IMG/VR virus record: IMGVR_UViG_3300043786_001845
Location: 290-64,289 of that record
DNA from: a virus
Lineage: Duplodnaviria; Caudoviricetes
Direction: 5' to 3' (one strand)
Length of the DNA: 64,000 nt
The position numbers and the translations under genes are program-made. Positions 36,239-60,433 of this stretch are shown in pieces. Under the pieces are notes generated by a model that made no database searches, was not told the origin of the DNA, and was given only the letters and a program-made list of their open reading frames with translations. Positions within the stretch are counted from its first letter, which is position 1. Each line of letters starts with the position of its first letter.

Positions 36239-36510
36239 GCTGCGACCCACCGCTGTCTGGCAAAATTCCCCATCCACCCCTCGACGGACGCGCGCATCTC
36301 CGCCGACGGACCCTGGGGCATCTGCGCGATCGCGTCGTCGGACAACCAGCTGTGCATGAGAGGCGTGGCGTCGAGCGCGTCGACCGGGCGGTAGGTGAAG
36401 CTCCAACGCTGGCCACCCGGAACGGGAGTGGGCGAGAAGGTGACCGTGGCAAATGGGAATCGCGCTTCAAGCTCGGCGGCGTACCGCTCGAACGCTCCGA
36501 TGTCGATCAT
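36235..36510 (-). CDS. Hypothetical protein
   Basis: 91 aa, ATGA-coupled on both sides. Confidence 0.6.
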   Translation of the reverse strand: MIDIGAFERYAAELEARFPFATVTFSPTPVPGGQRWSFTYRPVDALDATPLMHSWLSDDAIAQMPQGPSAEMRASVEGWMGNFARQRWVAA

Positions 36511-37145
36511 GGCGTGCCCCGCTGGTGACGCGCGAAGAGCTCGGCCTGCTGGCCGTTGTAGACGCCGCTGTACAGCTTCGATGGGACCGCCGCCGTCCTG
36601 GCGAACGCGATCTGCATGACCCGCATCCCACTGCGAATCGAGTATGGGCGAGGGCCGTTGTTGCGCAGCTCGTAGGTGATCGTCCCCTGGAAGCCGGGCT
36701 GGATGAAGTCGGCGGCCGAGTGGTCGAGCCACTCGCGAGCGTACGTGCTGCGCAGGGCGAGTATTCCGACCGCGCCCGGCGGAATGCGCACGTACTCGGC
36801 GGAGTGACAGAGGAGGACCTGGTTGGGCTCGAGAAGAACCTCCACGGCCTCGCCCGGGCGGAGCTGGTCGGTCGCGTCGAACTCGACCGGGGACTGCATA
36901 GCGAGGGTCCTGGACCGCTCGGCCCCACGGACGATGTAGGCGTTCAGGGCCTGGGGGCTAGCGAAGCGAGATCCCACGCTGAGGTCGTACGAGGCCGGAC
37001 CGAGAAACTGGCTGGAGAAGGGCTCGATCAGCGGCCCCGCACCCTCGAGCGGGAGCTCTTGCCCCACGCCCTCGCCGTGAGACGGGGACCACGTCAGTGA
37101 CGGGTGCTCGCACATCTCGGCTATCTGAAAGTCAACTAGGAACAT
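36507..37145 (-). CDS. dcd: dCTP deaminase
   Basis: PASYDL, RSTYAR, A.FIQPGFQGTITYEL.N, R.MQI.F, YSG.Y.GQ. Confidence 0.88.
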   Translation of the reverse strand: MFLVDFQIAEMCEHPSLTWSPSHGEGVGQELPLEGAGPLIEPFSSQFLGPASYDLSVGSRFASPQALNAYIVRGAERSRTLAMQSPVEFDATDQLRPGEAVEVLLEPNQVLLCHSAEYVRIPPGAVGILALRSTYAREWLDHSAADFIQPGFQGTITYELRNNGPRPYSIRSGMRVMQIAFARTAAVPSKLYSGVYNGQQAELFARHQRGTP

Positions 37146-37214
37146 GGCTTCTCCTATAGAAGGGGGCGGAGCACCCGGATGGGCACTCCGCCTCGTGGAC
37201 GCGATAATAGACCG

Positions 37215-37442
37215 TCAGGCCGCCAAATTGGCGAAGCTCACGTTGGTGGCTTTCTCTTTACCGGTTTTGCCGTCGGTGCCGAGCTGGAAGGAGAGCACGT
37301 CGCCCTCGTTCACGGTCTCGATCCCGGAGCGCCGCAGGTCAGAGATGTGCAAGAATACGTCCTTGTCACCCTCGGTGCTGATAAAGCCGTATCCCTTGCT
37401 GGGTTTGAACCACTTCACTTTTCCTTGCTTGGTGTCACTCAT
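37215..37442 (-). CDS. Cold-shock domain protein
   Basis: GKVKWF...KGYGFI...DVFLHIS. Confidence 0.92.
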   Translation of the reverse strand: MSDTKQGKVKWFKPSKGYGFISTEGDKDVFLHISDLRRSGIETVNEGDVLSFQLGTDGKTGKEKATNVSFANLAA

Positions 37443-37557
37443 TGTAGCGATCTCCGCATTACGTTGATGAAATGTTTGACGCTCAGTCTTTTGTTGGCAC
37501 GCGATCGTCCCTCGTCGGTGCAGAATCTCGACTTCCTTGATCGCGCGTGCTGCTGTA

Positions 37558-37935
37558 CTACTTCCTCCACTCCTTGCACGGATTGGGGCAAATCTCGCTC
37601 ACGCAGTAGCTGGGGCTGGGGGCCGCCAGAATGCACCCCCAAGGGCGCGGCGTCTTGTCGATGCTCCAATTGTGCGGCACCGGGATGTGTTGCGCCGCCA
37701 GGGTGCAGATCTCCTGCAGCCGGTTGGAGGCCGCCATTGCCTTCGCGCTCATCTGCCGCTTCAGCTCTGCGTATTCTTCCTCGTTCAGTAAATACTGCAT
37801 GGTCTTCTTCTCCTCTACTTCGAGCGCCGGCAACAGCGCGTTCCTGATGCGCTCGCGAAGTTGCTGCGTGTAACCATACTTCTTGGCGACACGCGTCAGC
37901 TCGTCTACCAACTGGCGCTTTTCATGGTCCAACAT
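37558..37935 (-). CDS. Hypothetical protein, Cys-rich C-terminus
   Basis: From MLDHEKR in a run of small genes. Confidence 0.55.
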   Translation of the reverse strand: MLDHEKRQLVDELTRVAKKYGYTQQLRERIRNALLPALEVEEKKTMQYLLNEEEYAELKRQMSAKAMAASNRLQEICTLAAQHIPVPHNWSIDKTPRPWGCILAAPSPSYCVSEICPNPCKEWRK

Positions 37936-37945
37936 GTTTCGCGTC

Positions 37946-38161
37946 CTAGTGTCCCAGCGCGCCAGCCGCCGTTTCCTCAAGCATGTCCAGGTCGGTGTCC
38001 AATACTTCACACCACACGGGTCTCGGGTCACCGATCTTCGCGAACTGGTGCCAATAGCCATTACCGCTCCAGTTCTTACCCAGGTAGATAAGCCGATCCG
38101 GCTGGCCCTTCCAGTTGTAGTGACCGCCGCGCTTCATCACCTCGGGCGTCAGGTTGCTCAT
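37946..38161 (-). CDS. Small hypothetical phage protein
   Basis: GG.YNWK.Q..RL.Y.G...WHQF...VWCEV; AAGGAG RBS. Confidence 0.65.
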   Translation of the reverse strand: MSNLTPEVMKRGGHYNWKGQPDRLIYLGKNWSGNGYWHQFAKIGDPRPVWCEVLDTDLDMLEETAAGALGH

Positions 38162-38202
38162 CTTCAGTCTCCTTGTTCTGCCACAAAGTGGTAGACACTT
38201 CG

Positions 38203-38436
38203 TCAGAGAAAGCGTGCCGAGACGGCCGCGATGGCCGCCATGTCCACGACCGTGCGGCAAATCTCTTCGGTGCCGTCATCGTCACGGACATACGCGTCCA
38301 TGACGATGTAGTCATCGTCAAGGAGTGTAAGCGGTCCCTCGAGGACCGCCCCACCGATGAGCGTGACCCTGAGGTCGTACGCCGCCCCATCCTGGTCCAT
38401 CGGACCAACGAGCGCGGCCAGTCCGGTCGGGCTCAC
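38203..38436 (-). CDS. Small hypothetical protein
   Basis: GTG start overlapping the upstream stop. Confidence 0.5.
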   Translation of the reverse strand: MSPTGLAALVGPMDQDGAAYDLRVTLIGGAVLEGPLTLLDDDYIVMDAYVRDDDGTEEICRTVVDMAAIAAVSARFL

Positions 38437-38735
38437 TGCTGCCCCCCGCCCGACTGCACTCGATAGAAACTGCATGGCGGGGCATCCGTCTGGGTCTGGA
38501 CCTTGATTTTCTCGCGCACGGCGTCCCATGGCGTCTTGAGGGTCGCGTCGGTGTAGACTTGGCCGAGCCCGGTTGTCTCGAGGTACTCGAGGACATCGTT
38601 GAAGGTCTTGAAGAAGCGCGGCGTCTTCCCGTCCTTAATGGTCTTCCAATAGAGCCCGGCGAACCCCTCCAGCTCTATCTGCCAGGCGCCGGCAGTGGTG
38701 TTGAATCGGGCACGCAAAATTGTTCTTCCACTCAT
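38433..38735 (-). CDS. Hypothetical protein
   Basis: 100 aa, GAGG RBS. Confidence 0.6.
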   Translation of the reverse strand: MSGRTILRARFNTTAGAWQIELEGFAGLYWKTIKDGKTPRFFKTFNDVLEYLETTGLGQVYTDATLKTPWDAVREKIKVQTQTDAPPCSFYRVQSGGGQQ

Positions 38736-38764
38736 TCTTATTCCTCTCTAGATAAAGTAAGGCT

Positions 38765-39025
38765 CTACGGAGCGCCAGTCTCAGACCCGGGTTTGCACTC
38801 TGCACGCATGGCTTCGCGGAACTCCACGGTGCGCGTCACGTCTCCGTCATGTGTATAGGCACCGAACGTCGCACATATTTCCACAGCCGCGCTTTCCTGC
38901 CCGGCATCAACGGGATAGATCCTCACCCCGCCGACTGTCTCCCCGCACTCAATACCCGCATCGCGCAGCGCATCACGCAGCGCGATGACCACTGCGTACT
39001 TGAGACGCATCGTTTCAGCAATCAT
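38765..39025 (-). CDS. Hypothetical protein
   Basis: 86 aa, AAGGAG RBS. Confidence 0.6.
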   Translation of the reverse strand: MIAETMRLKYAVVIALRDALRDAGIECGETVGGVRIYPVDAGQESAAVEICATFGAYTHDGDVTRTVEFREAMRAECKPGSETGAP

Positions 39026-39086
39026 CGATTCACTCCTTGGAGGTATCTAACCGCCAATGTCAAATCTCCCGCCGCGCACCCCTGCT

Positions 39087-39539
39087 TCAGTAGGTGTCGA
39101 CGTCTATGGCGTGCTGAATCACTTCGACGCCTGAACCGGCCGTCAATAGGCCATCGCCGACTGCGCGCTCGCACTCTCTGTGCACTGCCGCCTCCATGAC
39201 GGCGATGTCCTCTCCGTTCAGATCGTACTCGACGTCGATGATGATGCGCAGCCTGGAGTGTGGCGGATGGGGGATCGGGCCACCACCCTCGATGTGCACG
39301 TCCCTCTCCAGAAATAGCGCCCCGCTATCAGTAACGAATACGCGTCCGAGACCGTTGTCGTGGTTCACCGGCTTCTGCGAGTTCCAATCGATGCGCGTCT
39401 CTCCCTCGTATACGATATCCATGGTTCCACCATCCTCAGTGACTCCGAGGATGCCGGCGACTCCGAGGACCGTGTCGAGAGTTCCGACGATCTTCTCGCC
39501 GTTAGGTCCTACAAGCGTTTTGACTTCCAGTTCAGGCAT
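39087..39539 (-). CDS. Hypothetical protein
   Basis: 150 aa, TAAGGA RBS. Confidence 0.65.
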   Translation of the reverse strand: MPELEVKTLVGPNGEKIVGTLDTVLGVAGILGVTEDGGTMDIVYEGETRIDWNSQKPVNHDNGLGRVFVTDSGALFLERDVHIEGGGPIPHPPHSRLRIIIDVEYDLNGEDIAVMEAAVHRECERAVGDGLLTAGSGVEVIQHAIDVDTY

Positions 39540-39576
39540 TCCTTACTCCAATCAGATAATGCGAAATTATGGTCAC

Positions 39577-40671
39577 TCACACCTTCACCTGGACCCGGCG
39601 TATGAATTCCCGCCGGACACCCATGTCCTTGACGGGCTGACCCTTGTGGTCCACCCCTGCGAAGGTGTTTTGAAAGACGCGCATGCGAAAGCCGGGGGTG
39701 CGAAAGAACGGACTCGCGCCGGGGATTCGCCTGACGCGTTCCAGCATTCCGGACTCACGGTCAATGTACAGATCGACGTCGAGCGTGAGCAGGCCGGCGG
39801 CCGTCACCTGGCGGAGTATCGTCTCGTGGCTCGCGCCGCAGGTCGCCAGCCCGACGAAGTCCGGCTCCCAACGCTTCTCAGTATAGAACACACGCTCCGT
39901 CTGGATCAGGTCAATGATGCCCTCGGTCACGACGACGCGGTGCGACGGTGCGAGCAGGCTGACGTCCGCGCGGCAGGCGAATGACTTGCTACCCTCCCAC
40001 TCGGGCCAGACGCGATAGTTGGTGTAGCGGCGACCCCTGTGGTTCGGGTCTACCGAACGAAAGATGACGTACGACTCGTCTGAAGACAAGAACCCCACGC
40101 AAGTCTCGTTCAGGCGGTCAGCCTCCCGCTGAGACTGGGTTAGAGACCCTACCCCGTTCGCCTCGAGGAAACCATAGAGACCGCACGCGATGATCTTGTA
40201 GCGCTGGATTTCAGCATGGCTCAGTGGATCGCCACCGATTCGATCCTCGATGTACTCCAGAGCCATGAGGTCCAGCGGATCGCTCCTGCTCGGTTCTGGG
40301 ATCACCAATCTGCCGGCCCCCGGCCCCAGGGTCGCAGCCTGCCTGCGCTTGGATCTACCGGAGCGGCGCTCCGCCTTCTCTACCTCTCGCACGTAGACGG
40401 CCGCGTCCCGCTCGGCGGCTCCGAGTCCGTCCAGAATCTCGACGGTCAGGTGTCCGCCCTTCGCGCCGCACCTCTGGCACATGTACGGATGGGGCGGGGT
40501 CAGGCTCAGGTAGAAATGGTGGTGGAGGGCATTCTTCGTGCTGTCGCCGCATATCGGACACCGCGTCGAAATCTCGCCATTCCTGACGAAACAGGGGCGC
40601 CCCGACCGCTCGACGGCCGCCACCACCGCTTCTATCCCCCCGCTCACGAGCTGGAGTCCTCCAGCTCCCAC
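39577..40671 (-). CDS. DNA primase (Zn finger + TOPRIM)
   Basis: RCPICGDS...H.Y...CQRCG; RYTNY; VVTEGIIDL; DLYID. Start uncertain. Confidence 0.8.
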   Translation of the reverse strand: MGAGGLQLVSGGIEAVVAAVERSGRPCFVRNGEISTRCPICGDSTKNALHHHFYLSLTPPHPYMCQRCGAKGGHLTVEILDGLGAAERDAAVYVREVEKAERRSGRSKRRQAATLGPGAGRLVIPEPSRSDPLDLMALEYIEDRIGGDPLSHAEIQRYKIIACGLYGFLEANGVGSLTQSQREADRLNETCVGFLSSDESYVIFRSVDPNHRGRRYTNYRVWPEWEGSKSFACRADVSLLAPSHRVVVTEGIIDLIQTERVFYTEKRWEPDFVGLATCGASHETILRQVTAAGLLTLDVDLYIDRESGMLERVRRIPGASPFFRTPGFRMRVFQNTFAGVDHKGQPVKDMGVRREFIRRVQVKV

Positions 40672-41046: not shown

Positions 41047-42540
41047 TCAGCGAACGCCGACCGAATGTGCGGCGAACCGCAGTACCTCCTGGGCCACAGT
41101 CTCGATACGATGCTCGACGATGCGGTGGTCGGGCTCGCACCCGCGTTCAGGTAGGCTCTCGAACACGCCGCTGTGAACGGCTCCGATCATCTCGATGATC
41201 ACGCCGCTGTCGATGATGGACTGGCTGGTCTGCCCATACAGGCTACCGAGCAATTCCTTGTATTGGGCACTGTCCATGAACTCCCGGATGAACTTCTTCC
41301 GACTCAGCAGGCGCCGACCGTCGGCGGCCTCGACTACGCGCGCCCCGGCGTAGTCGTAGAGCGCCGGGAAGTCATTCACTGCCAGCCAGTGTCGCACAGT
41401 GAGGAGCATCCGGACGTAGTCATTGATCGTTCGCGTCTTGATCATGTCGATGCGGCCGACCTTGGGGGCGAAGAACTTCGCCACAAGGCCTCGCTGCCAC
41501 GAGCTTATACCGCTCTCACGGAGAACCGTGGACCAGTGCAGGACGTCCTCAGCGTCTGGTTGCCAGTGCAGCTCCCGGTACGTCCCGTGGAGGGCTGAAA
41601 CGAACACCACATCTCCAAGGACGGCGAGACCCTCGTCCTTGCGCACGAGCTCGGTCTCCAGGTGCTCCATCGCACCGACGCCCTCTCCGTCCATCACGTC
41701 AGGTCTCACCGGCTTGTAGTGCATCCCGAACTTGGCCGTGAACTGGAACTTGATCTGGTTCTTCAAGAATGCCTGGAAGAACTTGATGATGTTCGTCCCC
41801 TGCTCCAGCTTCGGAATGCCCTCCGCGATGAATTTGCGGAAGAGACGGTCGATGAAGATCTGCGGGTCCACGGCGATGTTGCGCAGGTAGTTCCACATCA
41901 CCTTGTCGGAGTACCGGGTCTGAAGGACTCGCGACTCCACCAATTTCTTGATCTTGGCGAAGATGTCCACGCTACCGTCAGCCGGCTCGAAGCGAGCCAG
42001 CAGGGCACCGAAGCAGCTGACGATGACGCCGACGGAGTCGCGCGCTTGAATGTCGCGCTCGTCCATGAATGCCGTGATGACCGGCACTATCGCCACGCAG
42101 GCGTACGACCAGCGCAGTATGATGAGGGCGTGCTCGTTCGTGAATTGCAATTCCTCATTGTTGCGCCCGTCGTGCTCCGTGTCGATGTCAATTCCCTCGT
42201 CCTCGTACACGGCGTCGACGATGCCCGCGATGCGGGCCACCGTCGCGTGGTCGAAGAGGTCGCACATCCTCTCCGGCAGCTGATCGTCGGAGATGAAATC
42301 GGGGTCGTCGGGCGGCATCGCCATGTCAAAACGAAGGGCGAGGAGCCCCCATGTGAAGTCCTCGTCCTCCGTCAGCCTCTCCAGCGCGTCCTTGCTCCGC
42401 TCCGCCAGGCCAAGGAAGTTACGCTTCCTCGCCATCGGGAAATGGCAGTGGTCTTCGATGTTTCTCCGGAAGTGCCCCGCGAAGTCGATGTGGATACCAC
42501 CTTCGACTAGTGTCACTACCGGCCTGCTCGTTCCATCCAT
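41047..42540 (-). CDS. Sigma-like promoter-specificity subunit of non-virion RNAP (AR9 gp226-like)
   Basis: Collinear blocks match my recollection of gp226: NEELQFT, SRVLQTRYSDKVMWNYLRN, FTAKFGMHYKP, RKKF...S..Y..LL, AQEVL. Two genes from the chaperonin, as for AR9 gp226/gp228. Confidence 0.7.
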   Translation of the reverse strand: MDGTSRPVVTLVEGGIHIDFAGHFRRNIEDHCHFPMARKRNFLGLAERSKDALERLTEDEDFTWGLLALRFDMAMPPDDPDFISDDQLPERMCDLFDHATVARIAGIVDAVYEDEGIDIDTEHDGRNNEELQFTNEHALIILRWSYACVAIVPVITAFMDERDIQARDSVGVIVSCFGALLARFEPADGSVDIFAKIKKLVESRVLQTRYSDKVMWNYLRNIAVDPQIFIDRLFRKFIAEGIPKLEQGTNIIKFFQAFLKNQIKFQFTAKFGMHYKPVRPDVMDGEGVGAMEHLETELVRKDEGLAVLGDVVFVSALHGTYRELHWQPDAEDVLHWSTVLRESGISSWQRGLVAKFFAPKVGRIDMIKTRTINDYVRMLLTVRHWLAVNDFPALYDYAGARVVEAADGRRLLSRKKFIREFMDSAQYKELLGSLYGQTSQSIIDSGVIIEMIGAVHSGVFESLPERGCEPDHRIVEHRIETVAQEVLRFAAHSVGVR

Positions 42541-42608
42541 TTGTTTTCCTTCAATGGTCTTCTGGTTGATGGGATATCGAAGAAATTATATCCGCGCGAA
42601 GCCGGTCT

Positions 42609-43406
42609 TCAGATTTTCTTCCTGGGGCGCCCAGACCCGACGCTGCGCACGCGCTTGGCGGCGAGAGCCTGACGGCCGACCTTCGCGGCCTTCCCGGTCT
42701 TGGCCGTGCCCTGCTTGACGGCGGACTCGAGGGCTCGGTCGGCAGCCGCCTTCCGAACTGCCGCCGCCTTGGCAGAGCGCGCGGCCGCGACTGCCTTTTC
42801 TCTCTCGCGCTCGTACTCGAACATCTTCGCCTCCGCGGACAGGGACGAGTCGCGCGGATCGGGCGGCTGCGACTTCCGGACTGCCTCGAGGTCTGCAAGC
42901 GTGACTAGCCCGCCTGGCCCGTTCAGATACATGATGGCCTTGTGAGTCACCTTGTCAAATCCGTATTGCAGATCCTTGTTGACGCTCGACGGCGGCTCGA
43001 CGGCGGCTCGACCAAGCGCCCCCTTCCAGCCTCGGGCGAGAAGGTCGGTCTTGGTTGCGACGTACCCGAGCGTGAAGACCCAGCTCGGAGAGTTGCAGTA
43101 CAATCGGACGGCCGCCGACATGACCGATCGAACGCCGTCGCCGAATGACAGTACCAGCACTACGTCGTATTCGATGTCGTACTTCTCCGACGGAACCTTG
43201 ACCCACACCGTGTACGCGCCGTCGCCGGCCTCCGAGACGGAGAGCTTGTACCGGGGCCGGACAGCCGCGTCCGCGATCGATTCTCTGTACTTCCTGTCGA
43301 GCGCGTCGCGCAGCATGTACCGCGCGCCGACGTTACGCGTGCCCTTTCCGGGCGGGTTGGTCACGAGATCGCGGAGCGTGACCGGGGCCGGTGTTATCTG
43401 GGACAT
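42609..43406 (-). CDS. Hypothetical protein with basic C-terminal tail
   Basis: VPSE..YDVVL...RLYCNSPSWVFT; lies between the chaperonin and the sigma-like gene. Confidence 0.65.
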   Translation of the reverse strand: MSQITPAPVTLRDLVTNPPGKGTRNVGARYMLRDALDRKYRESIADAAVRPRYKLSVSEAGDGAYTVWVKVPSEKYDIEYDVVLVLSFGDGVRSVMSAAVRLYCNSPSWVFTLGYVATKTDLLARGWKGALGRAAVEPPSSVNKDLQYGFDKVTHKAIMYLNGPGGLVTLADLEAVRKSQPPDPRDSSLSAEAKMFEYEREREKAVAAARSAKAAAVRKAAADRALESAVKQGTAKTGKAAKVGRQALAAKRVRSVGSGRPRKKI

Positions 43407-43410: not shown

Positions 43411-45225
43411 TTAGTCCAGGCCGCCGCCGGCGACGGGTCTGGTCAGCACGATCTGGTTGCTGGAGATGAACAGGGACACGATGCTGGCTGCACCGCGGAG
43501 CACTTCCACGTCAGTGTCCACCGGGTTGATGACCTGCGTCCCCTTGACTGGCGAGTACGTCCGAGTGAGGGCGTTGTAGGCCACGCCGTCCCGGACGCAC
43601 TGCGCGATTACAGCCTGCGGATTATCGATGCCGGCATTGACCAAAACACGAGATGCGGCTTCGATATAGGCATTGTAGAACGCCTGCAGCGTCGCGAGAG
43701 CGAGGGTCTCGCACTCTGCCTCCGGGAGATTCGTGCGCAGCGAAATGCGATGGCCGACGTCGTCCGCGACGGCGTCGTCCGTGTAGAGAATGCGGACGGC
43801 AGTCATCCCCATCCCCTCGACGGTGCCGGACGAAATAGCAGCGCGAACGGCCAGGACGGCATCATCGATGAGAAATGCCAGGGCGCGTCGCTCCTGCTCG
43901 GTTGGGCCGCCCACAGCGACGGTCACCTGGGAGCCCTGGAGGGCGCGGATTCTCGATCGCAGTTCATGGATCTCCTCCGACAGTGCCTCGGCATTGTTGG
44001 ACTCGTCCAGCCTGATGAGCTGCGCACCAAGTTCGGTCGCCCGCGCGTCCGCCCCGGCAGTCGTCTCGCTGCCGAACGAGAACACGGTCTCGGAGCGCGT
44101 CGACTTGGCCGCGCGCGCAAAGCCGCAACATGACAGCACGTTGTACTCTTCGGTCGGGCAGTTGTCCCGCGTGATCACGGAGGCGCCGAGGACCGCGGCG
44201 AGATCGCCGAGACGGGCACGCGCCCCCCTCGTGCTCCCGGAATGGTCCACGAGGAGAATCTTGGCGGATGGTGTCTCCGAGCGGAATTTTGAGATGGCCG
44301 CCACGACGTCGTCCGTGAACTGGTGAGACACGGCCACAAAGGCCCGCCCGTCCGTCAGGCAGCGGTTCATCGCCATCGCCACGACCCTGTTGAACATGGG
44401 CTGGTCCACGATGAGATCCAGCACGAGCACGACGGCATCGGTGAGGCGACAAACCGTCGGAGTGACGCCGTCGGGCCCGACCTCGTTGGCGAAGCAGTCG
44501 TGGACCATCCCGCGCAGCACGCGGAACCCGGCCTCCGGTACGATCTGGATGCCCCTTTCCGATTGAGAGGTTGTCACGTTCACGCCGACGTCGGATCCGT
44601 ACTCGCTGTACAGCGCCGCTATCAGCTTCCCAACTTCGGGATCATTGTTGGCGGAGATGGTGGCAACTGCACCAACTGTCTCGTCGGTGGTGCTGAGAGC
44701 CGCCTTGCCGATACGCTCAGCGAGGCTGTCGGCGACGGCGCCGATGGCGGCCTGGATGGAGCCCGGGGCGAAGCGCTGTGAGACTCTGCTTTCGAGGAGG
44801 GAGGAGTAGAGCGCGTCTGCCATCACGACCGCGCTGGTGGAGCCATCCCCTACCTTCCGGACCATGGCGCGGCTGACGGACCGCACGTGATCCAGAACCA
44901 TCGTGGCGGTCTCCTGGACGTACGTCAGTCGTTGAAGGACGGTGTAGCCGTCCTTGGTGGCGAAGTGGTCGCCTCCCTCGTCACGCACCAGGACGTTGGC
45001 GCCGCCTGGGCCGAGAGTCCGGCCGACGGTGTCGGCCACGGCGGAGAGGGCGGATGAGACGGCCTCAATGTGATCCTGCCCGGAAAGCACATTGCCGCGC
45101 GGAGGCACAGCTCGGCTCGTCTTTGTCTCGCCCACCAGAGGGCGGGCGGCGAGAGCCAGCGCCTCCTCCAGGTGGCTGCCGGCGGCCGGCCGAATGTGTG
45201 CGCTGTCCTTCATATGTATCTCCAT
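43411..45225 (-). CDS. GroEL-like phage chaperonin
   Basis: TLGPGG, TKDGYTV, VGDGSTSA, VATISANND, IDDAVLA.RAA, VINP. Confidence 0.92.
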   Translation of the reverse strand: MEIHMKDSAHIRPAAGSHLEEALALAARPLVGETKTSRAVPPRGNVLSGQDHIEAVSSALSAVADTVGRTLGPGGANVLVRDEGGDHFATKDGYTVLQRLTYVQETATMVLDHVRSVSRAMVRKVGDGSTSAVVMADALYSSLLESRVSQRFAPGSIQAAIGAVADSLAERIGKAALSTTDETVGAVATISANNDPEVGKLIAALYSEYGSDVGVNVTTSQSERGIQIVPEAGFRVLRGMVHDCFANEVGPDGVTPTVCRLTDAVVLVLDLIVDQPMFNRVVAMAMNRCLTDGRAFVAVSHQFTDDVVAAISKFRSETPSAKILLVDHSGSTRGARARLGDLAAVLGASVITRDNCPTEEYNVLSCCGFARAAKSTRSETVFSFGSETTAGADARATELGAQLIRLDESNNAEALSEEIHELRSRIRALQGSQVTVAVGGPTEQERRALAFLIDDAVLAVRAAISSGTVEGMGMTAVRILYTDDAVADDVGHRISLRTNLPEAECETLALATLQAFYNAYIEAASRVLVNAGIDNPQAVIAQCVRDGVAYNALTRTYSPVKGTQVINPVDTDVEVLRGAASIVSLFISSNQIVLTRPVAGGGLD

Positions 45226-47584: not shown

Positions 47585-47596
47585 TATCCGAATGTT
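47585..47596 (-). promoter_or_regulatory. Late promoter motif AACA-TTCGGA-TA
   Basis: Motif ~30 bp upstream of ATG 47553. Confidence 0.65.
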
Positions 47597-50866: not shown

Positions 50867-52264
50867 ATGTCGAAGCTCTACCTGCTCGCCACCAATACGA
50901 AGAAGGTGATCTCCCACCTCATCACTGGCGTGACGGGCGAGCGCTTCAATCACGCGTCAGTGGCCCTCGACCCGAGTCTCCGCGAGTGCTATTCGTTCTC
51001 GATGGGAGCGGGCGGGTTCGTCGTTGAGAATCCGTCAGTGTGGCCAAGTGGTACGGAGTTTCTGCTCCACGAGGTCGAGGTCACGCCAGCCGGCCTTCGC
51101 GCCGCGCGGTCTCGAATCGAGAAGGAAGCTGCCGGCGAGCGTGGGTTTTCCTACACCGGCATGCTGGGAGTGGTCCTTCGGCGGCCGATCGAGAGTGACG
51201 ACGCGCTTTTCTGTTCAGAATTCGTCGAACGCGTTTGCGTGGCCGCCGGACTCGCTCCGTCGGTCGCCAATCCGGCCCTGGCGACACCGGTTGGAGTGGT
51301 CGCCCGCGCCGATTCTAAAAAGATCGCCAGCGGCATGCTGCACCGTTACATAGCTGCGCATCAAGTAGAGAGAAATTTCCCGATGATCCTCCGAACAGAG
51401 ACTGCCGAATACGAAATGGGAGCCCTTACGGAGGGCGTGCTCGGAGACTGGTCCAAGAAGATCTCCGACCTCTCGAAGTCCAGCATCGACGCCGCGGTCT
51501 CCTCGTGGGAGAAGAAGGTGGCGGAGTCGGAGGCCGGTCTTGCGAAGGGCGGATTCGACATGGCGCGGTTCAGGGCGCACTGCGAGAAAGAAGCCTCGCG
51601 ACTGGAGCGGATCTTCGCGCCGACTGGCGGTTTCAGAGAGAGTGTTGGGGAAAATGCCGCGCCGACCTTTCAGAAACTCTCGAAGGAGGTCTCCCTCAGC
51701 TTCTCCACCGTGTTCAGGTCCATGTACGACGACCTCGGGGAGGAGGGTGAAATACCCGCCGGACTGGCTATGTTCATGGTGATACTGGCCGCCCAGATTA
51801 TCGTCGCCCCTATCGGATTCCTATTGTTAGGACCGTGGGGGGGACAGGTGTTCCTCGCCGTGGTCGCGGCTCCGCTGACCGAGGAGCTGGGGCGGCGCCT
51901 GCTCATCAAGCAGGGAAAGGGGCTGGCCGCCTACACGCTCACGATCAACGTCTTCGAGTTCCTCACCTACACCCGGACCATGCTCGCAATGGGTTACAGC
52001 CTGGGCTCCGCTGTGCTCATCAGGGGCACGGTCGCCGTGATCCACCAGCTTCTCGGCGCTCTTCAGAAGTGGGGCTACATCCGGGACCTGCAGATGGGGG
52101 TGAGCCCGGAGAAGGCTGGTGAGAAAGAATTCTACCTGGCTATTCTCGCGCACTCTCTCTACAACCTATTCAGTACTCCGATATGGGACGCCATCGTTCC
52201 CCCTCCCGTAAGAGAGTCTGCATCGGACGAGTACTTCGCGACCTCGCTGGAGCTCGCCATCTAG
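50867..52264 (+). CDS. Fusion: permuted papain-like (YiiX/NlpC-P60) domain + PrsW/CPBP-like intramembrane protease domain
   Basis: FNHASVAL ... FCSEFV (His before Cys); C-terminal TM helices with APLTEELGRR, FE, IHQ and AHSLYNL. Confidence 0.65.
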   Translation: MSKLYLLATNTKKVISHLITGVTGERFNHASVALDPSLRECYSFSMGAGGFVVENPSVWPSGTEFLLHEVEVTPAGLRAARSRIEKEAAGERGFSYTGMLGVVLRRPIESDDALFCSEFVERVCVAAGLAPSVANPALATPVGVVARADSKKIASGMLHRYIAAHQVERNFPMILRTETAEYEMGALTEGVLGDWSKKISDLSKSSIDAAVSSWEKKVAESEAGLAKGGFDMARFRAHCEKEASRLERIFAPTGGFRESVGENAAPTFQKLSKEVSLSFSTVFRSMYDDLGEEGEIPAGLAMFMVILAAQIIVAPIGFLLLGPWGGQVFLAVVAAPLTEELGRRLLIKQGKGLAAYTLTINVFEFLTYTRTMLAMGYSLGSAVLIRGTVAVIHQLLGALQKWGYIRDLQMGVSPEKAGEKEFYLAILAHSLYNLFSTPIWDAIVPPPVRESASDEYFATSLELAI

Positions 52265-52300: not shown

Positions 52301-52312
52301 AACATTCTTCTG
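52301..52312 (+). promoter_or_regulatory. Late promoter motif AACA-TTCTTC-TG
   Basis: Motif ~20 bp upstream of ATG 52333. Confidence 0.65.
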
Positions 52313-55315: not shown

Positions 55316-55316
55316 G

Positions 55317-55367: not shown

Positions 55368-56342
55368 TTACATGTAGGCGGCCAGGATGCCGGCGGCCTC
55401 ATCTTTGCTGCTGATGGCGTGGCTCTTGCCGGCGCGCAGGGCGCTCACCAGATAGCCCATGGACTGAGCATTGACCTTGGAGACGGCGCTGATGACGGCG
55501 CTGATGGAGCTCTGGACGACCGGGCCGATGGTGGTGAGTGCCTCCAACTTGCGGTTGAGGCTCTCCTTGCCGTCCTTGTCTTCCTGGCTGTCACCGCGGC
55601 CCTTCGAGTTGGCCCAGACCGTGGTGTAGCCCTCGGCCTTCTTCACGAAGGAGTCGGCGATCTGCTTCGCATGGGGGAGGTCCTCCATGTCCTTGAAGGC
55701 GGCATGGGCGACCTTGATCATCGCCTTGACGCCGGCGGCATCGATTGCCACTTCCTTCTCGTCGCCGATGATGTCGTCCTGGAGGCTCTTGGTGAGAGAG
55801 CCATCCTTGTCGCCACTGCGGCCGTAGAGCTCTTCCACCTTCTTCTTCAGTTCTTCGCGGTCGACCTTGTCGCCGACGTCGTTGGACAGAGTGAGAGCTT
55901 TCTGAGCCTTCTCGGCAAATTCCTTGAACTTCGTGCCGGAGTAGGCCATGACCTTGCTGCCGAAGGAGTACTTGGCGTCGCCGAAGCTGGTCAGCTTCAC
56001 AAGCTCGGCCTCGTTCTTCTTCAGCCACTCGGTACGGGGGCCGAAAACCTTGCTCCGGATGCTCTCGAACGCGGCGGAGATCCAGTTCACGAACTTCTTC
56101 CAGTACTTGACGATGGTGTCTTTGACGCGGCCAAAGAATTCCTTGATGCCCTCGTTGAGGGTCTCGGGGCTGGCGCTCTCCACAATGCAGTGGTGCTCCA
56201 GGCGTGCCATGGCGATGTTGAGGTTACCGATGGTGACCATCGATTCCATGGTGTTCTCGATCAATTCCTGCGGCTCGCCGACGAAATCGCCGATGCCAAC
56301 GGACTTTCCAGCCAGGGCAGGCAGGTTGTTTTCCAAGATCAT
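55368..56342 (-). CDS. Putative internal head protein, tandem copy B
   Basis: From MILENN; TLNE/GIKEFF..IKD pattern; nearly identical to 56409..57371. Confidence 0.7.
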   Translation of the reverse strand: MILENNLPALAGKSVGIGDFVGEPQELIENTMESMVTIGNLNIAMARLEHHCIVESASPETLNEGIKEFFGRVKDTIVKYWKKFVNWISAAFESIRSKVFGPRTEWLKKNEAELVKLTSFGDAKYSFGSKVMAYSGTKFKEFAEKAQKALTLSNDVGDKVDREELKKKVEELYGRSGDKDGSLTKSLQDDIIGDEKEVAIDAAGVKAMIKVAHAAFKDMEDLPHAKQIADSFVKKAEGYTTVWANSKGRGDSQEDKDGKESLNRKLEALTTIGPVVQSSISAVISAVSKVNAQSMGYLVSALRAGKSHAISSKDEAAGILAAYM

Positions 56343-56408
56343 TACGAAACTCCTAAGGGTTGATTTACAAATTTGCAAACAGAGACGGGACGGGACGCGA
56401 CGCGGGAA

Positions 56409-57371
56409 TTACATGTAGGCGGCCAGGATGCCGGCGGACTCTTTTTTGCCACTCAGGGCGTGGGAGCGGCCTGCGCCCAGGGCGTGTACCAGATAGCCCA
56501 TGGACTGAGCATTGACCTTGGAGACGGCGCTGATGACGGCGCTGATGGAGCTCTGGACGACCGGGCCGATGGTGGAGATCGCTTCCAGTCGGCGGTTGAT
56601 GCTCTTCTTGCCGTCCTTGTCGTCATCACCTTTCGAGTTGGCCCACATTGCGGTGTAGCCCTCGGCCTTCTTCACGAAGGAGTCGGCGATCTTCTTCGTC
56701 TGGGGGAGGTTTTCCATGTCCTTGAAGGCAGCGTGGGCGACTTTGATCATCGCCTTGACGCCGGCGGCATCGATTGCCACTTCCTTCTCGTCGCCGATGA
56801 TGTCGTCCTGGAGGCTCTTGGTGAGGGAGCTGTCCTTCCCATCGCCGCGACCGTAGAGCTCTTCCACCTTCTTCTTCAGTTCTTCGCGGTCGACCTTGTC
56901 GCCGACGCTGTCAACCAGATTCAGAGCGTGCTGGGCCTTGTCGGTGAAGCTCTGGCATACGGTGCCGGAGTAGGCCATGACCTTGCTGCCGAAGGAGTAC
57001 TTGGCGTCGCCGAAGCTGGTCAGTTTCACCAATTCGGCCTCGTTCTTCTTCAGCCACTCGGTACGGGGGCCAAAGATCTTGCTCCGGATGCTCTCGAACG
57101 CGGCGGAGATCCAGTTCACGAACTTCTTCCAGTACTTGACGATGGTGTCTTTGATACCGCTGAAGAATTCCTTGATGCCCTCGTTGAGGGTCTCGGGGCT
57201 GGCGCTCTCCACAATGCAGTGGTGCTCCAGGCGTGCCATGGCGATGTTGAGGTTACCGACTGCAACCATCGATTCCATGGTGTTCTCGATCAATTCCTGC
57301 GGCTCGCCGACGAAATCGCCGACGCCGGCAGATGTTTTGCCCGGGGTGAACGTGTGGTTTTCGAGGATCAT
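56409..57371 (-). CDS. Putative internal head protein, tandem copy A
   Basis: 320 aa; TTAGGAG RBS; late motif upstream. Confidence 0.7.
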   Translation of the reverse strand: MILENHTFTPGKTSAGVGDFVGEPQELIENTMESMVAVGNLNIAMARLEHHCIVESASPETLNEGIKEFFSGIKDTIVKYWKKFVNWISAAFESIRSKIFGPRTEWLKKNEAELVKLTSFGDAKYSFGSKVMAYSGTVCQSFTDKAQHALNLVDSVGDKVDREELKKKVEELYGRGDGKDSSLTKSLQDDIIGDEKEVAIDAAGVKAMIKVAHAAFKDMENLPQTKKIADSFVKKAEGYTAMWANSKGDDDKDGKKSINRRLEAISTIGPVVQSSISAVISAVSKVNAQSMGYLVHALGAGRSHALSGKKESAGILAAYM

Positions 57372-57461: not shown

Positions 57462-57473
57462 TAACTTCCTGTT
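57462..57473 (-). promoter_or_regulatory. Late promoter motif AACA-GGAAGT-TA
   Basis: Motif ~90 bp upstream of ATG 57371. Confidence 0.6.
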
Positions 57474-57502
57474 TGACTTAGGTGGACCTTTCCCGCCAAA
57501 TC

Positions 57503-58417
57503 TCACACGACGGAGCCACCGCTCTGCGCGATGCTGAGATTCGGAGATGGGGTGATGGCCTTCTCCGCTGCCAGTGTTTGTCGCACCCCCTTCTCCGCGT
57601 CAGCATTGTCGACGCGGACGGAGTCCGCGATCGCTCTTAGCCGTTTGGCGTACTGCTCCTGCCTGTCGCGACTGGAGGACTTGTCGACGCCGAGAGCTGA
57701 GGCGTTCATGTCGAGGAAGCTGGCCTGCAGGTCGAGCCAGCGGGCGAACGTCCCGCGGAGACGGTAGTAGTACTCCGCCATCTCGCGCGCCAGTCCGAGG
57801 AGGGCAACGAGGGCGACCGCGCCGCCCGCCGCTATGGCTATGACGGACCAGACCTCGCCGAGCAACTCGCTCTCCAAGGCCCTCGCCGTCTCGGTGACGG
57901 TCTGCTGGAAGCCGTACTTGTCCGCGGCCTCGACGAATCGGGCGAGGCGGGTCGCCGGGACCCCGGTCGCTACCGCGTCCGCGCCGGCGGCGTTCGCCAC
58001 GGGCTGGTAGCGCCCGTCCGCGCCCTTCACGAAGATGACGCCCTCGGCGCAGAGGAGGGTGACGGTATGCCAGAGGGATGCGACGATCCCGACGTAAATG
58101 AGGCGGCTCGCCTCGCTGCCACCCTTGGCGAATGCCTTCTCGAAGGTCGGGCGCTGTCTCAGGAGCATGGTCTCGGCAGCGCGGGCGTCGCGGAGCGCCT
58201 TCCCGAGCGTCCCGCGGCCCCCGTCGATCGCGCTGAGGCGGGAGATGCAGCGGGAGAGGTTGTCGTAGCCTTCGACCCTCGTGACGTTGCCCTTGGAGGA
58301 CATCGCGGCCTTAGCGATCTCGTGGTCGCTCTTGCCGCGCAGCCGGTCGATGAGCTCCGCCACCTGGCCGGGGGCCGCAGTCGACTGGACGGTGGACTTC
58401 TCTGTCAGATTCTTCAT
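57503..58417 (-). CDS. Putative virion protein with one hydrophobic segment
   Basis: SKGNVT...YD; LAREMAEYYY..R; late operon. Confidence 0.6.
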   Translation of the reverse strand: MKNLTEKSTVQSTAAPGQVAELIDRLRGKSDHEIAKAAMSSKGNVTRVEGYDNLSRCISRLSAIDGGRGTLGKALRDARAAETMLLRQRPTFEKAFAKGGSEASRLIYVGIVASLWHTVTLLCAEGVIFVKGADGRYQPVANAAGADAVATGVPATRLARFVEAADKYGFQQTVTETARALESELLGEVWSVIAIAAGGAVALVALLGLAREMAEYYYRLRGTFARWLDLQASFLDMNASALGVDKSSSRDRQEQYAKRLRAIADSVRVDNADAEKGVRQTLAAEKAITPSPNLSIAQSGGSVV

Positions 58418-58418
58418 T

Positions 58419-59960
58419 TCAGGTCCTCGCGAGGATGGTCATCATGTCCTTGACAGACGTTTGGCTGCCGCGCTCCTTGATCTCGCTCATCGGGATGCGG
58501 TCGAAGTCGCCGTCGCCGTCCTCGTAGAAGCGCACCAGGCCGATGCTCTCGTCGACGATCGCGAAACCCATGAGGTTGTGGCTCTTCAGGAGGTCGCGGG
58601 CCACGGCCGGCTTGGAGAAGTCGACGCCGTACAGGCCGCGGATGCGCTCCACCTCGTCGGCGGTCACGATGACGGTCGTGGTCGGGGGCACGAAGCCGCG
58701 CTTGGAGACGGCGGCGACGACCCAGGTGCGGCGCAGGTCGTTCCACTCGGCCTGGCGGCGGAGCGTCTCGAGCATCTTCGTCCCGCCGCTGGTCTTGCTG
58801 CTGGCGCGGGCCTTCGCGGCGCCGAGGTTCAGGACGAAGTCCTTCACGAAGGACGTCTCACCGCTCGTCAGGCGCATGAACTGCAGAAAGAGGCTGTCGC
58901 GCTGCAGCGCGGTGCCGAGGCCGGTCACGAGGTCGACGCTGGGGACGACGTGGGCCACAGCTTTCACGCCGATCATCATCTTGGTCTCGTGGACGTTGTC
59001 GCCGCTCTTGTGGTGGACGGTGAGGTCGAGCAGCACGGGCGGGAAGCGGTTCACCTTGTCGAACTCGGTCGGCTTCCAGCCGGATACCCTGGCCTCGTTG
59101 GTGTACACCTCCAGGGCGTCTTTGGGGAGCTTTTCCATGGACGCGATCAGGCCGACGACTCGCTCGTCGGTCTTCTTCATCTGGTTGAGCAGATCCCTCG
59201 CGTCACCGCGCTGCATGAGCTGGGCGACGAGGCGGGTGAGCTCCTCGCTGTCGTGTTTCGCGGTGCTGTGAGTCTTTACTTTTGCTTCCTGCTCCGCCAT
59301 TTCAGCTTCCGGGCTGATCGGCGATCTAGGCTTTGAGCCGGCTCCCGGATTCGCGGAGATGTTGTTCGCCCACAGATTCTCCGCGTCCTTCCGGCTCATC
59401 GTGACGGGGTGCTGGCTCGAGCTTGGCGAGCTATTGGGCTTGAAGTTTCGTATGTTCGAGGTCCTGGGATCCTTCAGGGCTTCTGATAGTATGTGACGCT
59501 CCAGCGGCGGGCGGATCTCCAGCCCGCCGCCCATGGCGGACTCCACGAGGGACACGATGTTCTTCCGGACGTACGCTCCGACCTCGCTGGCGCTCTCGTC
59601 GAAGATGGCGTCCTTCAGCGACGACCCCTGCAGGGAGCTGACGATCGCGCCTTTCCCCCCGCCCTCCCGCGGGTCCAGGTTCGTCACGTAGAGTCGGACG
59701 TACTCGGTGGCGCGGACCTGGACGGCGCGGGAGATGGTCGCCACGGTCTCGGGCGAGAGCGACTCGGACCCGACGACCGGGAAGAGGAGGATGCTGCTCT
59801 TCGCCCTCTTGGCGACGGAGTCGATGGGGCGCTGCAAGAAGTCGTCCGGGCCGTTCAGGTCCCCGGCCGCCTTGTTGAGTTGGTCCGGGGCCGCCCGCAG
59901 GCCGCGGACCACTCCGGTTAGCTCGCCTACGAGCTCTTTCATGTCATTCAGGAAGCCCAT
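58419..59960 (-). CDS. Putative virion structural protein
   Basis: LLFPVV.S, IGVKAVAH, F..LTSGE.SF.KDF, P.TT.IVT..EVE, LMGFAIVDES; late operon. Confidence 0.65.
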   Translation of the reverse strand: MGFLNDMKELVGELTGVVRGLRAAPDQLNKAAGDLNGPDDFLQRPIDSVAKRAKSSILLFPVVGSESLSPETVATISRAVQVRATEYVRLYVTNLDPREGGGKGAIVSSLQGSSLKDAIFDESASEVGAYVRKNIVSLVESAMGGGLEIRPPLERHILSEALKDPRTSNIRNFKPNSSPSSSQHPVTMSRKDAENLWANNISANPGAGSKPRSPISPEAEMAEQEAKVKTHSTAKHDSEELTRLVAQLMQRGDARDLLNQMKKTDERVVGLIASMEKLPKDALEVYTNEARVSGWKPTEFDKVNRFPPVLLDLTVHHKSGDNVHETKMMIGVKAVAHVVPSVDLVTGLGTALQRDSLFLQFMRLTSGETSFVKDFVLNLGAAKARASSKTSGGTKMLETLRRQAEWNDLRRTWVVAAVSKRGFVPPTTTVIVTADEVERIRGLYGVDFSKPAVARDLLKSHNLMGFAIVDESIGLVRFYEDGDGDFDRIPMSEIKERGSQTSVKDMMTILART

Positions 59961-59965
59961 GTGGA

Positions 59966-60433
59966 TTATTCTCCGGAGGACGGTGTTGATCGATGTACAG
60001 CCAATGAATTGTTACCGGGACTCGCGCATCCCTCCAGGTAAGCGACCAGCTCCGCATCCGTCACCTCGGTCGGCGGCGGGACGAGCCCTTCGACGAAGAT
60101 CTCGTGACTGGCGCGGGCGTACGGGCCGCAGAAGCGAATTCCCGAGACCGGCTTTCCGGCGAGGTAGTCCTCGGTGAGCAGGCGCAGCCCGGCCAGGCGC
60201 CGTCGGCCGAGGCCGCACGGGCGGAGGACCGCGAGGAGTGCGCCGTCGCTGACTGCGGTCAGGTCCTCCGGGCGGCCGACGAGCGAGAAGAAGTCCAGCA
60301 GGACCTTCTTCGCCTGGGCTCGCGTGGTCCGGTTCAGCATCAGGCAGCCCACGAGCAGGTGCCACGGGCCGACGGCTGCCAACGTTCTCTGCACGACGCA
60401 CGGCCTACCGTCCTCTACGAATCGGATTTCCAT
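59966..60433 (-). CDS. MBD4-like HhH-GPD DNA glycosylase
   Basis: PWHLLVGCLMLNRT, LRPCGL..RR, GPYA..S..IF and VTDAEL..Y follow the MBD4 catalytic domain; the catalytic Asp appears retained. Confidence 0.8.
   Translation of the reverse strand: MEIRFVEDGRPCVVQRTLAAVGPWHLLVGCLMLNRTTRAQAKKVLLDFFSLVGRPEDLTAVSDGALLAVLRPCGLGRRRLAGLRLLTEDYLAGKPVSGIRFCGPYARASHEIFVEGLVPPPTEVTDAELVAYLEGCASPGNNSLAVHRSTPSSGE
60002..60013 (-). promoter_or_regulatory. Late promoter motif AACA-ATTCAT-TG
   Basis: Motif ~40 bp upstream of ATG 59960, inside the 3' end of the glycosylase gene. Confidence 0.6.

Follow-up and report, generated by a model that had tools for sequence, protein, structure and literature searches.

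Phages whose DNA carries deoxyuridine (dU) in place of thymidine are few, and the cultured ones among them that bear gp226, the sigma-like specificity subunit of the AR9 non-virion RNA polymerase (RNAP), are to our knowledge all AT-rich. Uracil has been reported in AR9/PBS2, BpSp, phiR1-37, and S6 (PMC7598289), and the DNA of LPJP1 (25.9% GC) was amplified only by a uracil-tolerant polymerase, low GC being called typical of uracil phages by its authors (PMC8460666). In AR9, the C5 of the −10 uracil lies 3.9 Å from the C-beta of gp226 V206, where a C5 methyl would clash, and the V206G enzyme takes T and U equally; the −10 uracil pocket is formed by gp226 I207 and beta-N R363, and gp226 Y210 stacks onto the −9 G (PMC9209446). 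On its template strand, the AR9 late promoter has the sequence 3'-UUGU-N6-A(U/C), the +1 position being A or G (PMC7598289). Here, we analyze a 64,000-nucleotide stretch of viral DNA (the window, that is, the 64,289-bp IMG/VR record IMGVR_UViG_3300043786_001845 minus 289 bases), which encodes a gp226-like subunit, a dCTP deaminase, and an MBD4-like protein, and ask how it compares with these phages.

The window covers roughly one quarter (~25% by CheckV) of the genome of an uncultured, 63% GC, lake-water jumbo myophage, and its GC content runs from 59 to 67% in 4-kb bins. The phage has split virion and non-virion multisubunit RNAPs, a gp226-type subunit, and AR9 late promoters before late genes, and there is hardly any doubt that it is an AR9-type, gp226-bearing jumbo phage with AR9-type early and late promoters. 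Its lineage is that of AR9/PBS1, phiR1-37, the Staphylococcus S6-like phages, and LPJP1. The phage probably has deoxyuridine replacing thymidine in its DNA, because a valine is kept at a site that otherwise varies, the promoter is conserved, a deaminase that appears to lack dUTPase chemistry stands in the place of the AR9 enzyme, and thymidylate synthase is missing. Proof of uracil in virion DNA needs chemistry, and what we infer on this point comes from sequence throughout. For comparison, the window's own IMG/VR record (G000) was set beside four relatives (G001–G004). The first of these, G001, has 259,338 bp at 65.6% GC in its IMG/VR record, carries direct terminal repeats, and is rated 100% complete by CheckV; it is collinear with the window, with matches for 41 of 54 window proteins, and is referred to below as the complete relative.

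Comparison with described uracil phages

AR9/PBS1 (Takahashivirus), with dU-DNA and two split multisubunit RNAPs, shares with the window full-length gp226 homology in which V206, Y210, and W208 are kept, the late consensus AACA-N6-T(A/G), an early ATAT..AT core, and the gene order GroEL-g227-g226-primase-deaminase. Both also have a virion RNAP subunit followed by a Hef-like homing endonuclease, an intron with an HNH endonuclease in the beta-prime N gene, and a guanylate-kinase-like gene, and both are without ThyA or ThyX. The two differ in that the sampled stretches of AR9 are 26–28% GC against 63–66% in the window and the complete relative, gp226 identity is only 24%, the zinc CDA deaminase of AR9 is replaced by a metal-independent DCD fold, no Ugi or g110 homologue is found here, and no ribonucleotide reductase genes lie between primase and deaminase. 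The Yersinia phage phiR1-37, which has a Gram-negative host, likewise carries a gp226 homologue (g245) with the valine kept and the order GroEL-structural protein-g245; its CDA-type Dcd and Ham1-type dTTP pyrophosphatase (PMC12697855), in contrast, are absent from the window and the complete relative. A complete metagenomic relative of phiR1-37 (G003, an IMG/VR record of 249,347 bp, 35% GC in the stretch examined) has dU enzymes of both phiR1-37 types, namely a CDA deaminase and a Ham1 pyrophosphatase.

Of the dU siphophages DSS3_VP1 and DSS3_PM1 (Naomviridae roseophages), DSS3_VP1 also has neither ThyA nor ThyX, and it reaches 47.5% GC over its first 50 kb, which means that dU-DNA is not confined to AT-rich phages. 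The initial annotation was right that AR9/PBS1-type phages are AT-rich, but a dU phage of intermediate GC content was already known. DSS3_VP1 is otherwise unlike the window: the phage is not related, its genome measures 75 kb, its RNAP has a single subunit, and its deaminase and dTMP phosphatase are of the CDA and HD types, respectively.

The gp226-like subunit and the valine at the V206 position

The gp226-like sigma-like specificity subunit of the non-virion RNAP is encoded at 41047..42540 on the minus strand (497 residues), is identified by tblastn, clade profile, and alignment, and has no Pfam family. A tblastn search with this protein against 50,697 phage records returned 21 matches and nothing else, namely eight Bacillus phages of the AR9/PBS1 type, ten Staphylococcus phages, two records of Yersinia phage phiR1-37, and one Listeria phage (LPJP1), with 95% coverage of the AR9 match at E = 7e-30 (24% identity in alignment). 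The orthologue in the complete relative is 63% identical, and 38 further gp226-like relatives (38–67% identity, on contigs of up to 259 kb) were found in a collection of 5.8 billion proteins. A profile built from 34 clade proteins, the window's included, has AR9 gp226 as its sole match in the PDB (7s01_A, 7um0, 7um1), aligning to residues 14–460 of the 464 in 7s01_A with E = 8e-56, so that the open reading frame (ORF) proposed initially as a gp226-like subunit is real and of that family.

In a six-sequence alignment, V206, I207, W208, and Y210 of AR9 correspond to V214, M215, W216, and Y218 of the window protein, and the 2.1bis helix motif reads TRYSDKVMWNY. The initial annotation had placed a retained valine codon at about 41899–41901 by eye, and this is borne out, V214 being encoded by GTG at 41899–41901; the role in excluding the thymine methyl that it gave for V206 agrees with the structural report on AR9 (PMC9209446).

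Within the clade, the position of V206 is occupied by Val in 32 of 34 proteins and by Ile in the other two, and Val is present at all 16 fetched metagenome or viral loci, which range from 28 to 66% GC. An exhaustive profile search gave 412 representatives of the gp226 family at E up to 0.001, and variation at the site was followed in 150 of these 412 representatives together with the relatives from the 5.8-billion-protein collection, 173 sequences in all covering the site. They comprise 110 V, 12 T, 10 I, 7 K, 6 G, 5 P, 5 R, and 4 A, the other 14 being spread over eight further residues (S is among those that occur in the family), and the neighboring Trp (W216 in the window) is kept in 171 of the 173. 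The V206 site is accordingly free to vary within the gp226 family and not structurally fixed, and some members carry small residues there that ought to accommodate thymine. Since the site varies in the family and yet is always beta-branched in the clade, the pattern is the one expected if the promoters of the clade carry U, and retention of the valine would fit such promoters as a correlation. The partners of the non-virion enzyme are represented by beta-prime N in the window and by beta N and beta C in the complete relative, whose beta-N homologue is 36% identical to that of AR9 by tblastn (39% in pairwise alignment) and keeps R363, the residue that stacks on the −10 uracil in AR9.

Late and early promoters

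Promoter motifs were sought in a set of 172 upstream gaps of at least 35 nt (18.5 kb), 41 of them from the window and 131 from the complete relative. Of the AACA tetramers in these regions, 53 of 116 have a T ten positions downstream, the next base being A or G. The sense motif AACA-N6-T[AG] occurs 47 times, against a mean of 5.0 (sd 2.4) in dinucleotide shuffles, none of 300 of which reach 47, and the other spacings give 3 (N4), 1 (N5), 4 (N7), and 8 (N8) sites. The antisense count is 19, largely from divergent gene pairs. In the 41 window regions taken by themselves, 11 sites stand against a shuffle mean of 1.35 (sd 1.17; none of 1000 shuffles reach 11), with one site at N4 and none at N5, N7, or N8. 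N6-TR follows eleven control tetramers in 0–20% of cases and AACA in 38%. A and G are equally frequent at +1 (22 sites each), and AACA mostly lies 32–41 nt before the start codon. The raw count of AACA-N6-TA over the whole sequence is not enriched (11 in the window against ~8.6 expected; 22 in the complete relative), as the enrichment becomes visible only once the count takes account of upstream location, orientation, and T(A/G). The window motif is an AR9-type late promoter with the exact N6 spacing, so the late motifs reported in the initial annotation are real, and with a spacing so exact the transcription programme of an uncultured phage clade can be read off its DNA sequence. The A/C-rich words ACACA and AACCAA were also enriched upstream, but they adjoin the ribosome-binding site and were read as leader and not as promoter.

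On the minus strand of the window, late-promoter-type sites lie at 8343..8354 (AACAGTGATTTA), 11511..11522 (AACAGCCTAATA), 28612..28623 (AACATTTCCTTG), 37484..37495 (AACAAAAGACTG, upstream of the cold-shock and deaminase genes), 47585..47596 (AACATTCGGATA), and 57462..57473 (AACAGGAAGTTA, with an orthologous site in the complete relative at 218900+). Plus-strand sites lie at 8413..8424 (AACAGAAACTTA) and 52301..52312 (AACATTCTTCTG). A divergent pair with the sequence AACAGATGCTTA in both members is found at 32530..32541 (−) and 32567..32578 (+), and the placement of the pair is conserved in the complete relative (249881− and 249905+). The eleventh window site, at 42534–42545, is doubtful, as it overlaps the first ATG of the gp226-like ORF.

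An early-type motif, ATAT(C/A/T)AT, which resembles the ATATATTAT core of the annotated early (virion RNAP) promoters of AR9, lies 40–140 nt before the gp226-like, beta-prime N, and kinase-like genes, and before beta N in the complete relative. The core ATATAAT at 42585..42591 (−) is upstream of the gp226-like gene and recurs before its orthologue in the complete relative, and AR9 g226 is likewise preceded by an early promoter in the AR9 annotation. Further early-promoter-type motifs are found at 22029–22035 (+), 22086–22092 (−), and 60942–60948 (−), with about 20 more in the complete relative.

A dCTP deaminase at the place of the AR9 enzyme

The ORF at 36507..37145 (−) encodes a 212-residue dCTP deaminase of the dUTPase-like (DCD) fold. 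It scores above the cut-off with PF22769 (E = 2.6e-25; 89.8 against 27 bits) and with the equivalog model TIGR02274 (96.3 against 92.8 bits), it matches the PHROG dCTP deaminase family (E = 3.4e-35), and its best PDB sequence matches are all dCTP deaminases, which confirms the initial assignment; 23 relatives of it were found, some of them on contigs equal in size to those with gp226-like or MBD4-like proteins. S133, R137, and E159 do not vary among 12 clade sequences, carry the same letters in the aligned Mycobacterium tuberculosis Dcd:dut (2qxx), and presumably correspond to S111, R115, and E138 of Escherichia coli Dcd. The phage enzyme is thus like E. coli Dcd and the M. tuberculosis and Methanocaldococcus jannaschii Dcd:dut in its TIGR02274 match and its Ser/Arg/Glu residues, but unlike them at the Asp of the motif III sequence I-D-P-G-F/W, which is replaced by Q149 in the window; the remaining 11 aligned members of the clade have W, Q, or M there and never Asp. 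In dUTPases, the catalytic water is held by this Asp, and enzymes mutated at it are practically inactive (PMC5519681). With the motif III Asp lost, the phage enzyme should stop at dUTP and form no dUMP, and we infer that it deaminates dCTP to dUTP and cannot go on to dUMP.

The gene order of the window is GroEL, a 265-residue protein, the gp226-like subunit, primase, five small ORFs, a cold-shock protein, and the deaminase, and that of AR9 is GroEL (g228), g227, g226, primase (g225), NrdI/E/F, and g221, a member of the dCMP-deaminase family; the order from GroEL to gp226 is common to BpSp, phiR1-37, and LPJP1. The PBS1 enzyme of the g221 family has been shown biochemically to be a dCTP deaminase (PMC12697855). 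The DCD enzyme of the window thus sits at the syntenic place of the zinc dCTP deaminase of AR9, as an in-place replacement by an unrelated fold. Among nine genomes, the DCD family occurs only in the window's record and the complete relative (2/9), and the zinc CDA only in AR9, phiR1-37, LPJP1, Madawaska, and G003 (5/9), with neither fold detected in G002 and G004, so that the two folds are mutually exclusive across this set. In the window, the chaperonin gene (43411..45225, −; PF00118, E = 2.1e-24; phrog_5725, E = 2.4e-81) is of the phage GroEL type. The conserved 265-residue protein (42609..43406, −; phrog_20045), between the GroEL and gp226-like genes, has counterparts in AR9 g227 and in phiR1-37 g244 ("phage structural protein"). 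The DNA primase (39577..40671, −; phrog_19847, E = 1.1e-45) occupies the position of AR9 g225 beside g226, and the cold-shock-domain gene (37215..37442, −; PF00313, E = 2.3e-18) lies just upstream of the deaminase gene.

Thymidylate synthases and related enzymes

The complete relative has no ThyA, ThyX, CDA deaminase, dimeric dUTPase, or uracil-DNA glycosylase (UDG), and its sole PF00692 signal is a marginal one (22.8 bits) on the DCD homologue itself. The initial annotation had suggested a check for thyA, thyX, and dUTPase over a full genome, and, that marginal signal aside, all three are absent from the complete relative; the window, at about a quarter of its genome, has no ThyA or ThyX. Both synthases are absent from the five dU phages examined (AR9, phiR1-37, LPJP1, Madawaska, and DSS3_VP1), and ThyA is present in both RNAP-encoding jumbo phages without gp226 that were examined (AhC3_1 and PhiEaH1), a small sample. 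Fusobacterium phage JD-Fnp4 has neither ThyA nor ThyX.

The MBD4-like protein and GC content

The minus-strand gene at 59966..60433 encodes a 155-residue MBD4-like protein of the HhH-GPD family. The window protein by itself scores below the Pfam cut-off for HhH-GPD (22.3 against 26.2 bits), and its best PDB matches are 15 MBD4 chains at E ~1e-3, but a four-sequence clade profile (the window and three relatives) matches the MBD4 domain over 120 positions with E = 2.4e-17, against 1.6e-7 for EndoIII and ~1e-3 for MutY. The match thus covers the whole glycosylase domain of MBD4, the mammalian G:T/G:U mismatch glycosylase, and exceeds that to EndoIII by ten orders of magnitude; the window protein differs from MBD4 in having no methyl-CpG-binding domain, in being a phage protein encoded among virion genes, and in having Ala for Asp. 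The motif that reads G-K-Y-G-N-D-S-Y in MBD4 and G-x-Y-A-x-D-S-Y in the relatives is G-P-Y-A-R-A-S-H in the window, where Ala108 (codon GCC at 60110–60112) stands at the position of the MBD4 Asp that we take to be the catalytic one and that is kept in all three relatives. The window copy is probably not an active glycosylase, although the Ala108 codon may possibly be an assembly error. The family proposed in the initial annotation therefore stands, and the expected catalytic residue does not.

The MBD4-like protein has no tblastn match among the 50,697 phage records. All three GC-rich gp226 genomes have a PF00730 match (G001, G002, and the window, where it is below the cut-off), and none of six AT-rich genomes examined has one, a distribution that fits, in a small sample, a need for mismatch-specific repair in a GC-rich uracil genome. 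The idea that a mismatch-specific glycosylase permits high GC content is thus weakened for this phage, with its Ala for Asp, but is plausible for the clade, in which three relatives keep the Asp and the second GC-rich lineage has a MutY/Mig-like enzyme. AR9 has an annotated glycosylase, g110 ("N-glycosylase"), which is missed by the PF00730 model, has no Pfam match and no match in the window or the complete relative, and is unusable beyond its annotation as a precedent for the MBD4-like gene.

The second GC-rich gp226 lineage is represented by G002, an IMG/VR record of 238,984 bp (62% GC in the stretch examined) whose gp226-like protein has 29% identity and keeps the valine. Its regions 82130–82468 and 143342–143821 hold a 229-residue MutY/Mig-like glycosylase and a YfbR-type HD hydrolase, the latter of the same family as the dTMP phosphatase of DSS3_VP1.

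Uracil or thymine in the phage genome

If deoxyuridine replaces thymidine in this phage, its DCD-fold deaminase would make dUTP straight from dCTP, the phage DNA polymerase would then incorporate dUTP into DNA, and the non-virion RNAP would read late promoters on a U-containing template only, since Val214 leaves no room for the thymine methyl at −10. The glycosylase of the lineage (MBD4-like, and MutY/Mig-like in the second GC-rich lineage) would remove deamination-derived U opposite G, and the MBD4-like homologue of the relatives could do so while sparing U:A, the window copy having lost the catalytic Asp. The GC-rich dU phage of the AR9 kind envisaged in the initial annotation is favored by the retained valine, the promoter, the replaced deaminase, and the lack of thymidylate synthase in the complete relative; the parts of such a system that did not emerge are a dT-nucleotide hydrolase and a UDG inhibitor, and one residue of the beta-N pocket differs.

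Several observations weigh against uracil substitution. The NT5C (PF06941), Ham1 (PF01725), YfbR-HD (PF12917), HD (PF01966), and MazG (PF03819) families are all absent from the window's record and the complete relative, although the NT5C model also misses the enzyme of AR9 itself, which makes its null result uninformative and leaves room for a divergent enzyme. A tblastn search with the AR9 Ugi drew no match from the window or the complete relative, and no UDG inhibitor can be named there; such proteins are small, and those of different phages do not resemble each other in sequence. Ordinary phages commonly carry DCD-type deaminases (147 records), and among the 30 DCD matches listed there are none of the 21 gp226-bearing records. 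In the beta-N subunit of the complete relative, K375, which hydrogen-bonds the −10 uracil base in AR9, aligns with Ser and N382 with Lys, so that the beta-N half of the pocket is not identical to that of AR9. The window's MBD4-like copy has Ala where the catalytic Asp is expected. The known dU phages sampled span 24–47.5% GC, and a dU genome of 63–66% GC is without precedent among them; literature searches found no GC-rich gp226 phage, and a 2026 review treats uracil jumbo phages in general terms only. Uracil genomes have been reported to fail some library preparations (PMC8460666), yet several lake metagenomes contain this phage. The complete recovery of the phiR1-37 relative G003, with its phiR1-37-type enzymes, nevertheless implies that likely dU phages can be recovered whole from shotgun metagenomes.

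The phylogeny of the virion RNAP subunit gives no decision. The tree was restricted to 12 rows (the window, G001–G004, AR9, Madawaska, LPJP1, phiR1-37, JD-Fnp4, AhC3_1, and PhiEaH1), three of them with very long branches and one with a deviant composition, and it pairs the window with the complete relative (support 96/100) in a polytomy with G002, G004, phiR1-37 plus G003, AR9 plus Madawaska plus LPJP1, and the Fusobacterium phage. With dU lineages and the Fusobacterium phage in one polytomy, parsimony cannot assign the dU state, a further point on the negative side.

The same observations are open to another explanation, which we consider unlikely but worth serious weight, namely that an AR9-type phage of this kind has ordinary thymine DNA and a non-virion RNAP adapted to the template 3'-TTGT-5'. 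The DCD enzyme would then feed dUMP to host thymidylate synthase and on to dTTP, or balance pyrimidine pools, a part of this explanation that we likewise hold to be improbable. DCD genes in 147 records of phages without known uracil are what it would lead one to expect, as are the lack of a recognized dT-nucleotide hydrolase or UDG inhibitor, the loss of beta-N K375, a GC content without precedent in dU phages, and recovery from standard shotgun metagenomes. It is harder to reconcile with the methyl-excluding position, which holds Val or Ile in all 34 clade proteins although other members of the family have G, A, or S there, and with a deaminase that stands at the place of the dUTP-forming enzyme of AR9 and, lacking the Asp for dUTP hydrolysis, should yield dUTP and not dUMP. 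A GC-rich phage, moreover, hardly needs extra dT precursors from dCTP, and the complete relative is without ThyA and ThyX, like the five dU phages and unlike the two gp226-less RNAP-encoding jumbo phages. A partial or different pyrimidine replacement (a mixture of U and T, or a U-derived base made after replication with dUTP as an intermediate) is very improbable, for although a dUTP supply without recognizable removal of dTTP or dTMP would alone give partial substitution, and many ORFs of the window and the complete relative have no family match, no ThyA-like dUMP hydroxymethylase, the modification family that was searched for, is present and the gp226 pocket, as in AR9, has no room for a C5 substituent at −10.

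Replacement of thymidine by deoxyuridine is therefore preferred here. A broader proposal can be made only tentatively: a widespread freshwater AR9-like lineage may have a fully U-substituted genome of 63–66% GC, maintained by a DCD deaminase without the motif III Asp, an unknown means of dTTP exclusion, and a mismatch-specific HhH-GPD glycosylase. This proposal would explain how a U-genome could escape the low-GC drift seen in all known dU phages. If the clade has U-DNA at all, it would be the most GC-rich dU phage lineage known, would make its dUTP with a new enzyme fold, and would extend U-DNA chemistry to high-GC genomes and freshwater hosts. The deaminase would then represent a fourth, structurally unrelated solution to dUTP supply and a marker for predicting dU phages in metagenomes, and the lineage would serve as a natural case for studying how a U-genome distinguishes legitimate U:A from mutagenic U:G. 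The 412 representatives of the gp226 family, in which the methyl-excluding residue varies, would likewise form a series for relating that residue to U or T in the genome.

Three small, very acidic ORFs without a family match lie between the RNase H, deaminase, and primase genes, at 38203–38436 (−; 77 residues, pI 4.05), 39087–39539 (−; 150 residues, pI 4.43), and 35364–35642 (−; 92 residues, pI 4.29). Their size and charge are like those of DNA-mimic inhibitors such as Ugi, and to name them as candidates is pure conjecture.

RNA polymerase genes and other features of the window

Exon 1 of the non-virion RNAP beta-prime N gene, the homologue of AR9 g270, lies at 20828..21958 (−) and has its best match in phiR1-37 (E = 3.2e-71). 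A 1.3-kb group I intron follows at 19533..20827 (−), with a ribozyme core at 19619–19910 that scores 52.3 bits against the Rfam RF00028 gathering score of 50 and an HNH homing endonuclease ORF at 19859–20791 that matches HNH PHROGs. Exon 2 (19260..19532, −), with the catalytic motif DYDGD, matches positions 4137–4391 of the complete relative, straight after the exon 1 match; the beta-prime N gene of that relative is uninterrupted and contiguous over 3003–4391. AR9 g270/g271 has the same kind of intron insertion in the same gene. A virion RNAP subunit homologous to AR9 g264 is encoded at 26830..28161 (−; phrog_2962, E = 8.7e-65), with best tblastn matches to BpSp and AR9 at 38–39% identity, and is adjoined, as in AR9 (g265), by a Hef-like homing endonuclease at 24993..26744 (−; phrog_559, E = 2.7e-69). 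The protein encoded at 22114..23355 (+) has a guanylate-kinase-like N-terminal P-loop region common to AR9 g238, phiR1-37, and Madawaska. A dUMP kinase activity has been described for PBS2 (PMC12697855), and by conjecture the guanylate-kinase-like protein is a candidate dNMP (dUMP) kinase of that sort.

Coding-potential gene calling gave 66 genes in the window and 308 in the complete relative. Family scans found a jumbo-phage gene set in the window, with tail-fibre and virion proteins and two RNAP subunit fragments, together with primase, RNase H, DnaQ-like exonuclease, GroEL chaperonin, homing endonucleases, and a cold-shock protein, and no tRNA genes were found there. Megablast of 10 kb of the window against the 50,697 phage records gave no match and no near-identical record, a scan of metagenome contigs gave four short contigs only, and a scan of genome contigs gave none. 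Lake-water metagenomes contain window words; at least half of the words occur in each of five runs, two of which may be where the record came from. Two metatranscriptome runs from one sample gave 11 and 8 unitigs, at least 99% alike, some of them on the deaminase and cold-shock genes, with DNA carry-over possible; at 151–232 nt, these unitigs are too short for transcript starts to be read from them.

Three further loci were noted. A 239-residue protein at 13694–14413 (−), near the DNA polymerase and exonuclease genes, has an N-terminal match to the ThiF family of E1-like adenylyltransferases (E = 1.7e-12). The N-terminal 129 residues encoded at 50867–52264 (+) match an enoyl-CoA hydratase/carnitine racemase-like PHROG (E = 1.6e-11), with no Pfam match. 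Finally, the adjacent paralogues at 55368–56378 (−) and 56409–57371 (−), of 336 and 320 residues, both match one gene of the complete relative (219027–219926) at ~30% identity, and represent a gene of the virion module that is present either as a tandem duplication or as a divergent pair.

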